A stretch of DNA of 10,423 nt. It comes from a virus (lineage: Duplodnaviria > Heunggongvirae > Uroviricota > Caudoviricetes). Position 1 is the first letter of the stretch. Each line of letters begins with the position of its first letter. The position numbers were made by a program. Positions 6,001 to 9,000 of the stretch are shown here, piece after piece. The DNA lies in IMG/VR virus record IMGVR_UViG_2534681835_000018, one strand, 5' to 3'.

Positions 6001-9000
6001 TTTTCTTGATCACGCTTTTGCAACCGGCGTGCTCGGGTAAAAGAGGTTACTGATGCGTATAGAGTTTGTTTTGCCTTACCCGCCGACGGTGAACACCTAC
6101 TGGCGACGTCGTGGCAGCACATATTTTGTATCAAAAGCCGGTGAGCGTTATCGCCGGGCTGTGGCGCTTATTGTTCGCCAGCAGCGGCTGAAATTAAGCC
6201 TGTCCGGACGGCTGGCAATAAAAATTATTGCAGAACCACCGGATAAGCGCCGCCGTGACCTGGACAACATTCTGAAAGCACCGCTGGATGCGCTGACGCA
6301 TGCGGAAGTGCTCATTGATGACGAGCAGTTTGATGAAATCAATATTGTGCGCGGTCAGCCTGTGCCAGGTGGACGGCTGGGCGTGAAGATTTACGAAATC
6401 AGAGGTGGTAACGATGGCGCGTGATATCCAGATGGTTCTTGAGCGATGGGGGGCATGGGCAGCAAATAATCATGAAGATGTAACATGGCCCTCGATAGCT
6501 GCTGGTTTTAAAGGATTAATCCCGACTAAAGTGAAATCACGTCCTCAGTGTTCTGATGATGACGCCATGATAATTTGTGGTTGTATGGCACGATTAAACA
6601 AGAATAATCAGTATTTGCACGATTTGTTGGTGGATTATTACGTAGGTGGAATGACATTTATGGCTCTTGCACGTAAGCATAGATGTTCTGATGGGCTTAT
6701 TGGTAAAAGGCTTTATAAAGCGGAAGGTATTATTGAAGGAATGCTTATGGCTCTGAATGTCCGGTTAGATATGGATATGCGGTAGGGATATATAGTGATG
6801 AGGGTTATGTTTTCTGTGTTTATAATTAACATGTTTATTTTTTGATGGTCATGTATTGTGGAAGGTAGATAAAATGTTGCCTGGTGAATTGAAAATATTG
6901 ATAATCAATCTTCATCATTAAATAAAAGGAGTGCTTATGTGGATTGTGTTAGTACTGTCACTGTCAACTCTCAGTTGGCATAAGGTAGTGGCTTTTTCAT
7001 TGTTGACGGTGTCTGTTGTCCTGGCTGTGCTTAATGATATTATTGATTGGTCGGTGTTATTTTTTGTTGCTACAATCGTTTTTTTTATTATTTTGAAGTT
7101 CAACTGGAAATATAACGCCTGGGCTAAATCTATATATGAAGTTGGCATAGTTTTATCAGCCATAGCATTATCTTTCCATCTATGGCCAGGGTTTCACAAT
7201 CCTGTAGTGCTAAATTCTGTTACTGTTGGCCCTCAAAGTACTCCCTATACAATGTATTTTAATTTTGATAAAGCGCTGGTGCCATTTTTGTTAGTCCTGT
7301 GTACATCTTCTTTGTTTAAAAAAGAAGTAAAATCAGAAGTGTCTTTGTGGAAGTGGGGGGCTCTGTCGCTCTCTGTTCCTCTTATCCTGTTTTTGGCTGT
7401 TTTTTTTGGTGGATTAAAGCCAGAGATTCATTTTCCTGAGTGGTTGCCAGAGTTTATATTGGCTAATTTGTTTTTTGTGTCTCTGGCAGAGGAATCATTA
7501 TTTAGAGGGTATATTCAATCACGGCTATCAGAAGTAACGTCTCCATTGGTTGCATTAATTGTGGCGGCTTTGTTGTTTGGTTTTTATCACTATTCAGGTG
7601 GTGCTTTACTTGTATTATTTGCCACGTTATCTGGTGTTGTGTATGGATTGTCATGGATGTGGAGTGGGCGTTTGTGGGTTGCCACCCTTTTCCATTTTGG
7701 TTTGAATCTGTGTCACTTGTTATTCTTTACCTATCCATTTTTAAAACATAATTGATTTTTTCTATGGTTTTAAATTTATAAGACTGAAAAATAGCAGGAC
7801 GTGACATTTGCATGAAAAATATGCACGGCAAAGCATTTACGTACGTAAAAAATCAGGTATGCTGTTAAGAGTGGTTATTTCGCCGCATAGCTTGACCCCG
7901 CCTCTGAGCGGGTTTTTTGTGCCCGCAAAGTAGCGCAGTGCGTTAAATGTGCTGGTAGTTATTAATACAGGTCTTTCAGCTTGCTGGCTTTTTCGGCAAG
8001 AGTTATTGGTGTGTCACGTTAACCGGAAAGGGTAAAAAGACATGCTGAAACAGCAGGATATGACAGAAACCGCCAGAGTTGTGTTTGATGAATTAAGCGT
8101 CACCGAACCGGCGACAGTCGGGGAGATTGCGCAGAATACTTACCTTTCACGCGAACGCTGCCAGTTAATACTGACCCAGCTTGTTATGGCGGGTCTGGCA
8201 GACTATCAGTGCGGTTGTTACAGACGCCTTCAGTCCTGAAGGCTTTTTTATTTGTGGTAAATGGGCGGCTGGTGGGTGTTAGCGGCACCTGTCAGTCCTT
8301 TGCTTATGTGTTGATGATAATTTACCTTTTGGGGCTATAATTGAACTAACCAATTGCTAATGAAAGTAAAATTATAATGGTTGTTGTCTGTTCAGTTATC
8401 ATGGTTTGCTCCCCAATTAATATTTTTCTTGAAAAGGATACGTTGTCACTTAAGCCCGGCTCAGTCGTTCTGGCCACCAAATGCATCAGGGCGCTTTTCC
8501 TTATGCATTATGGCAAAGTTAAAATTTTCGATATAAACCATTCCATAGTAAGTCAATATCTGGAAATTCAGCATAAGCTGACAAGAACTCATCTGACTGA
8601 CGTTCCGCTTTATCTGTCACTGGAACCCAACAACCCTGCGTTGGCTGAGGCTTTAATTACCAGCCAGAGATTTTCCGGAGATACCACGGATATGTTTCTT
8701 ATGATGGCATGCCTGTCGCTGTTTGAATCAGATGAACGGATATTATTATTTTTAAGTGGATGTTTATCCAGTATAAGTGCCAAAGTCAGGGCGATAATTC
8801 AGACAGATATATCAGCAAGCTGGACGCTTGGTGCGATTGCGTTACGCCTGCATATGAGTGAGAGTTTGTTAAAGATAAAACTGAAAAATGAAGGGCACAT
8901 GTTCAGTCGCTTGTTGCTGGAAGAGCGGATGCGTGTTGCTGTGAATATGTTATGTTCCCGGCATGGATATGGACAGGCTGTAGCAGAAAAATGCGGTTAT

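Follow-up and report, generated by a model that had tools for sequence, protein, structure and literature searches.

An intact CPBP-type intramembrane protease gene, probably phage cargo, between Q and a putative late leader in Escherichia coli prophages

The 10,423-nucleotide stretch of DNA from IMG/VR virus record IMGVR_UViG_2534681835_000018 (referred to here, at its full length, as the window) codes, directly behind the Q antiterminator gene, for a CPBP/CAAX-type intramembrane protease, and the gene is intact. The prophage matches E. coli E2855 at 100% identity and is nearly the same as prophage Sp4 of the O157:H7 strain Sakai. With reasonable confidence, we regard the CPBP gene as a moron (cargo) rather than a phage-cycle gene, situated in a variable slot between Q and the late leader; this grading is a joint one for the explanation as a whole, covering protease, cargo status, capture, expression, and role together. 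The product is probably a catalytically competent glutamic intramembrane endopeptidase of the inner membrane, and lysogenic conversion with envelope processing is its most likely role. The annotation itself is not new and is already carried by RefSeq (WP_000265267.1, "CPBP family intramembrane glutamic endopeptidase") and by the Sakai genome (ECs_1085, "phage CAAX amino terminal protease family protein"). The PHROGs entry, phrog_13291, is of unknown function, and our literature searches found no published study of the gene. About one in ten complete E. coli genomes has it, mostly those of enterohemorrhagic and Shiga toxin-producing E. coli (EHEC and STEC; O157, O145, O111, and others).

Family assignment and predicted structure

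The open reading frame (ORF) is read from the ATG at 6937 (Table 1). An upstream GTG at 6931, proposed by an ORF caller, was rejected because the AAGGAG sequence precedes the ATG and every homologue begins MW. A Pfam profile search matches the product to PF02517 (Rce1-like) with 70.6 bits against a gathering cutoff of 22.4 (E 1.4e-19), aligning residues 169 to 258 with profile positions 3 to 92 (90/93 covered), a match so far above the cutoff that the motifs are not there by chance. All three catalytic motifs are present in the canonical order, EESLFR at 185, FGFYH at 214, and HFGLN at 253. Residues E185, E186, R190, F214, H218, and H253 are invariant in all 93 homologues, and N257 is found in 92 of them, with a single Asp exception. 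Seven residues of the subfamily-specific region (N88, S101, N109, D111, K112, E163, and H165) are likewise invariant in the 93 sequences, and the conserved block of this subfamily is predicted to form a beta-hairpin with short helices between the third transmembrane helix and the next hydrophobic segment.

An AlphaFold2 model built from a 34-sequence alignment has a mean predicted local distance difference test score of 90.4 and a predicted template modeling score of 0.89. It contains helices at residues 2-12, 16-32, 38-56, 61-79, 137-156, 170-198, 203-217, 223-243, and 246-263, with the beta-hairpin and its short helices at 90-120. The motifs lie within predicted membrane helices of a polytopic protein, with His218 of motif 2 falling just after the end of helix 203-217. 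An earlier note, made from the sequence alone, had described a prophage-encoded CPBP protease directly behind Q with three intact motifs; the profile search and the model bear this out, as does the lambdoid prophage setting, in which a PF06530 gene ends 151 nt upstream. The distribution of Lys and Arg residues, taken with the helix boundaries, hints at alternating loops, of which the positively charged 57-64, 128-139, 190-199, and 245 may be cytoplasmic, and the catalytic helices may have the relative orientation that they have in Rce1.

SpdC and Rce1 are the only strong PDB fold neighbors of the model, and Foldseek also places both on top. A sequence profile of the subfamily matches no PDB chain at E<=1, so kinship to solved structures is visible only at the level of the fold, and the catalytic residues are not mappable onto Rce1 by sequence. 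By analogy with Rce1, E185 and H218 would activate water and H253 and N257 would stabilize the transition state, and the last four or five transmembrane helices would form the cavity in which this takes place. The phage protein is only ~17% identical to Rce1, the type II CAAX prenyl endopeptidase (Methanococcus maripaludis structure, 4CAD), and differs in having an extra N-terminal helix bundle and the conserved 80-120 insert. To our knowledge bacteria have no prenylated CAAX substrates, and the substrate of the phage protein must therefore differ from that of Rce1. SpdC/LyrA of Staphylococcus aureus (6U0O) has lost key catalytic residues and serves the glucosaminidase SagB as a partner, whereas the phage protein keeps all of them. 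The Abi/CPBP bacteriocin self-immunity proteins PlnI, PlnP, and SkkI belong to the same Pfam family and have the same motifs; their genes sit inside bacteriocin operons, whereas no bacteriocin gene is near any locus of the phage protein examined here. Among NCBIfam models there are only subthreshold matches, to Mrt and ABC-CPBP families. Those to myxosortase-type proteins (MrtX, MrtP, MrtC, MrtS, and MrtJ) are weak and cover the catalytic core (E 4e-8 to 6e-4), and the best Mrt scores fall far below the curated cutoffs (33.2 versus 250 for NF040674, and 29.6 versus 100 for Mrt_core). Myxosortases are described as sharing the "glutamic intramembrane endopeptidase" chemistry (PMC11980579).

TABLE 1 Coordinates of the CPBP gene, its motifs, and other features of the window
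Feature	Coordinates	Strand	Details
CPBP (PF02517) intramembrane glutamic endopeptidase gene	6937..7755	+	272 aa; identical to WP_000265267.1, orthologue of Sakai ECs_1085
Shine-Dalgarno AAGGAG	6926..6931	+	6 nt ahead of ATG; read from sequence
Motif 1, EESLFR (E185, E186, R190)	7489..7506	+	Residues 185-190; in helix 170-198
Motif 2, FGFYH (F214, H218)	7576..7590	+	Residues 214-218; end of helix 203-217
Motif 3, HFGLN (H253, N257)	7693..7707	+	Residues 253-257; helix 246-263; motif 4 in four-motif CPBP numbering
Subfamily-specific conserved block	7177..7287	+	H81, PGFHN88, S101, N109-x-D111-K112, P116-F117
Candidate own sigma-70 promoter	6877..6905	+	TTGCCT-17-GATAAT; best in spacer 6786-6936; prediction
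Late-leader cassette (putative PR'-tR')	7836..7918	+	TTTACG-N16-TATGCT, invariant GTTAAGAGTGGTTAYTTCG, hairpin 7897-7912, T6
Q antiterminator gene	6405..6785	+	PF06530, E 4.9e-52; immediately upstream of CPBP gene
65-aa ORF	8042..8239	+	phrog_331; weak TrmB-type winged helix-turn-helix; 3' of late-leader cassette
AraC-family regulator gene	8377..9090	+	Second cargo gene downstream; 100% identical to O157 orthologue of ECs_1087
tRNA gene	9119..9194	+	tRNA-Met (CAT) or tRNA-Ile (ileZ); see text
STnc100 small RNA	9445..9635	+	Full-length Rfam match
IS3-family element	2312..3525	-	IS1203/IS629 type; two overlapping transposase ORFs
ALIL frameshift pseudoknot	3128..3244		Within the IS3-family element
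254-aa phage ORF	1741..2505	+	C-terminal part reads into the IS3-family element
hok/sok-type toxin-antitoxin module	4220..4544	+	Rfam sok, 117.5 bits; 70-aa Hok-like ORF

A cargo slot upstream of a putative PR'-tR' unit

RusA and DUF968 genes precede Q in the window, and the CPBP gene that follows it has a GC content of 37.9%, compared with 48.2% for the window, which fits a foreign origin; the spacer upstream of the gene (6786-6936) is only 28% GC. The downstream edge of the slot is marked by a conserved late-leader cassette, with a 19-nt invariant block and a GC-rich hairpin. The cassette is found in 3,608 of 5,426 E. coli genomes and in 92 phage records; in DLP12, for instance, it lies immediately ahead of the holin gene essD. 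In the Stx2a phage Stx2_EH2201 the slot is empty, with the cassette located ~40 bp past the Q stop codon; after it come the 65-aa ORF again, a methylase gene, tRNAs, and stx2A. This location is the textbook one for PR' and tR' in lambdoid late regulation (bioRxiv 10.1101/651190). From this position in a cargo-less phage, and from the conservation of the cassette, we consider it quite likely that the cassette represents the PR'-tR' unit and that a cargo slot between Q and PR' holds the CPBP gene. The 35 bp 5' of the invariant part diverge where Q is more distant, such as in phiP27 (Q 49% identical), as expected if the Q-binding site lies there. The cassette would yield an RNA of ~50 nt and probably serves this type of Q as its PR'-tR', comparable to the unit from which the StxS small RNA (sRNA) arises. 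We also considered whether the short RNA is the HnrS sRNA and found no basis for it. A literature search with the late-leader sequence gave no match, and a comparison of pR' regions (PMC6266700) gives no promoter positions for this Q type.

Other phages carry unrelated proteins at the same position, several of them on the opposite strand. These include a GIY-YIG nuclease gene in phiP27, a reverse-oriented 148-aa ORF in PhiR40_1, two reverse ORFs in Stx2a_1447, and the nmpC/lc porin gene in DLP12 and mEp332. Among these phages, the spacers directly 3' of Q have no detectable similarity, but the postcargo cassette does. A placement of PR' right behind Q, with the CPBP gene as the first late gene, was rejected because the Q-proximal spacers are unconserved and the postcargo cassette is conserved; it is also contradicted by the cassette abutting Q in the cargo-less Stx2a phage. 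Two features expected of a moron are thus found, namely, a variable site between conserved modules and a composition unlike that of the surrounding phage genes.

As the CPBP gene is upstream of the conserved cassette, it probably lies outside the Q-dependent late transcript, and it is probably not a Q-dependent late or lysis gene. This arrangement predicts no coinduction with Shiga toxin and lysis genes via Q. It also means that cargo can be present ahead of the late promoter within the "Q to stx" region that typing uses. The earlier note had proposed that the protein could modulate lysis. As a Q-controlled late product it might do so, for example, by processing a holin, antiholin, or spanin, and we find this very improbable: a membrane protease does lie between Q and the lysis genes with no terminator separating it from Q, but it precedes a cassette that directly follows Q in cargo-less phages, and the holin gene is >4 kb further on, with tRNAs and an esterase gene in between. 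The CPBP gene is also missing from most phages that have this Q type and these lysis genes, and its chromosomal orthologues have no lysis genes nearby.

Origin, distribution, and selection

Homologues of the CPBP protein, mostly 45 to 57% identical over full-length matches, are spread across the Enterobacterales, including Providencia, Proteus, Photorhabdus, Xenorhabdus, Serratia, Enterobacter, Cedecea, Dickeya, Pantoea, and Buttiauxella. They have the same length, motifs, and 80-120 insert as the phage protein and are likewise uncharacterized; they differ in genomic setting, with no Q, RusA, or DUF968 gene within 6 kb of the homologue in any of 80 species-representative genomes. These chromosomal genes stand alone, and 34 to 39 of 82 loci share one syntenic neighborhood whose members, recognized by their N termini, are presumably modE/modF upstream and gpmA, aroG, and pnuC downstream. 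A 51%-identical copy is also present in one Helicobacter sp. genome.

All copies that are 54 to 100% identical to the window protein immediately follow Q, with the gene order DUF968-RusA-Q-CPBP or a variation on it. The 1.3-kb CPBP region is present in 592 of 5,426 complete E. coli genomes (547 at >=99% identity and 572 at >=80% coverage), is 100% identical in many complete E. coli chromosomes, and is always accompanied by Q; E. coli therefore acquires the gene only through prophages. In a neighbor-joining tree, 10 Q-linked sequences form an exclusive clade nested within the chromosomal Enterobacterales family. Pairwise ratios of nonsynonymous to synonymous substitution rates (dN/dS) within this clade are 0.10 to 0.31, and the catalytic residues are kept across 46% sequence divergence. 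The exclusive clade, the dN/dS values, and the invariant residues point to one capture with long functional retention, and we conclude that a stand-alone chromosomal gene was probably captured once by a phage and kept under purifying selection. We note that no copy was found among 50,697 records of isolated phages by megablast and tblastn, and the CPBP folds in a viral structure library, all of them remote, come from giant viruses and Bacillus phage G.

The copy in Sakai Sp4 is the same gene (99.9 to 100% nucleotide identity) in the same order, with ECs_1084 (Q) upstream and ECs_1086 (the small ORF), ECs_1087 (the AraC-family regulator), and ileZ/argN/argO downstream. The window copy is of a non-O157 EHEC type at the yccA/tRNA-Ser site, and otherwise there is no difference of substance. 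An 84%-identical variant lies between Q and a Shiga toxin-like A/B gene pair in E. coli GCA_012267765.1 and SRR6511465, coding for a 315-aa ribosome-inactivating protein and an 89-aa SLT_beta protein, sizes that fit Stx1. The late-leader block at this locus has an altered terminator stem.

Expression and proposed role

The best promoter-like sequence in the spacer, a predicted sigma-70 promoter, is kept in the 84%-identical variant, and a promoter scan gives promoter-like sites at 6846-6918. A terminator scan finds none between Q and the CPBP gene, and the first one 3' of the gene is that of the cassette. In the lysogen the gene could be read from its own AT-rich promoter and, after induction, by the early rightward transcript reading through into it; the terminator at 7897-7918 would end transcripts of either origin. 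Since it is upstream of the late promoter, expression should be Q independent. Published data for EDL933 conflict: array signals are high, with expression in uninduced cells, whereas transcriptome sequencing (RNAseq) has zero reads for the gene in 11 conditions. It is a single-copy gene in O157 genomes, and multimapping is no obvious reason for the zero reads.

The role that we favor is at the level of the host, as a lysogenic conversion function in the envelope, where the protease would cleave a peptide or protein, embedded in the membrane or tethered to it, for which E. coli otherwise has no processing activity. We know of no substrate for any CPBP protease in the Enterobacterales. A more specific proposal is that a housekeeping Enterobacterales CPBP protein was captured once and long kept (to 54% identity), including in Stx1-type prophages, as an active lysogenic conversion protease for one specific host envelope substrate; we think this is unlikely. 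If true, it would imply resistance to a competitor's membrane-active peptide or to an incoming phage, or else a tuning of virulence together with the neighboring PsrA. A phenotype would give both an EHEC prophage gene and a widespread chromosomal family a function. The CPBP gene is two genes upstream of PsrA, a regulator of virulence and acid resistance, and in some prophages is directly upstream of stx1-like genes.

Several points weigh against our main interpretation. There are CPBP-fold proteins with nonprotease roles, SpdC and LnsB (PMC7387801), and we found no published enzymatic, genetic, or phenotypic test of this protein or of a close homologue. The promoter assigned to the gene itself is predicted, and the tree has no bootstrap values. 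The putative PR' (TTTACG-N16-TATGCT) agrees with the consensus at only 8 of 12 positions and is absent from the promoter scan output, and its identity is deduced from position and conservation rather than from mapped transcript ends. Single-T deletions in T6/T8 tracts (at 7060, 7079, and 7400) disrupt the ORF at 3 of 41 near-identical loci, and an N-terminally truncated 220-aa form, common in one source, makes up a cluster (P0004, 313 members) that exists beside the full-length cluster (703 members). Some lineages may not keep the gene intact, and the frameshift alleles could reflect slippage, decay, or homopolymer sequencing error.

Alternative interpretations

Among the alternatives, orphan immunity or resistance fares best, with the protease degrading or blocking a membrane-active bacteriocin, microcin, or antimicrobial peptide of competitors. 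The protein shares its Pfam family and the required motifs with Abi/CPBP immunity proteins, and the slot in which its gene lies as prophage cargo carries genes of benefit to the lysogen. Kjos et al. reportedly provided a precedent in 2010 for PlnI/SkkI-type immunity at Gram-positive bacteriocin loci. Such a role, which the earlier note had raised as bacteriocin immunity, seems doubtful here, as no bacteriocin-like, transporter, or modification gene adjoins the CPBP gene in the window, at ~50 phage-borne loci, or at 82 chromosomal loci, and the chromosomal orthologues are in a housekeeping-type syntenic locus. The positive-inside pattern also tentatively suggests an orientation like that of Rce1, whose cavity opens to the cytoplasm.

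Superinfection exclusion, which the earlier note also suggested, or an abortive infection-type antiphage function expressed from the prophage gains no support. The prophage location and the historical "Abi" name invite it, and the same Q-proximal slot holds the nmpC/lc porin gene in DLP12 and mEp332, a porin that may have a role in receptor exchange. The "Abi" label of PF02517 is historical, however, and is not evidence; no PADLOC antiphage defense family matches the protein at E<=0.1, its nearest nonphage relatives are single chromosomal genes without a defense island context, and the gene is missing from the sequenced phage records, with only remote folds in the viral structure library. We judge this somewhat less probable still than immunity.

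The gene could also be an inert passenger in E. coli, a piece of silenced AT-rich foreign DNA in defective prophages that is drifting toward loss. The zero RNAseq reads and the T-tract frameshift alleles are consistent with this, as is the state of the host prophages, which are defective, riddled with insertion sequences, and not represented among isolated phages. We see only a slim chance of it, given the dN/dS values between Q-linked copies, the near identity of the region across hundreds of genomes, the high array signals, and the 38 of 41 near-identical loci that are intact.

A noncatalytic scaffold or regulator, using the CPBP fold to bind a partner membrane protein as SpdC does SagB and LnsB does LnsA, is slimmer again. 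SpdC and LnsB have lost catalytic residues (PMC7387801), whereas here these are invariant in 93 sequences, apart from the single N257D, and are kept throughout the divergence of the phage clade. Family assignment and invariant catalytic residues together are our reason for preferring an active endopeptidase to a scaffold.

Neighboring features

The 65-aa ORF that follows the cassette does so in many lambdoid and Stx phages, with or without a CPBP gene. ECs1087, the Sakai counterpart of the AraC-family regulator, is named psrA in PMC13502914, and a review (PMC10877973) puts psrA at z1789 in OI-50. Its annotated start differs between sources, giving a length of 588 nt in Sakai and 714 nt in PGAP. 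Further downstream, ARAGORN calls a tRNA-Met (CAT) where RefSeq and Sakai have tRNA-Ile (ileZ), the lysidine-modified type typical of Stx phage tRNA clusters. The match to the sRNA STnc100 (138 bits, gathering threshold 47) is just downstream of three tRNA genes in a stretch without a long ORF.

In the upstream part of the window, the IS3-family element, which carries the frameshift pseudoknot, is inserted in the 254-aa phage ORF. The Hok-like ORF of the toxin-antitoxin module is annotated as hokD in related genomes and lies upstream of the DUF968-RusA-Q block.

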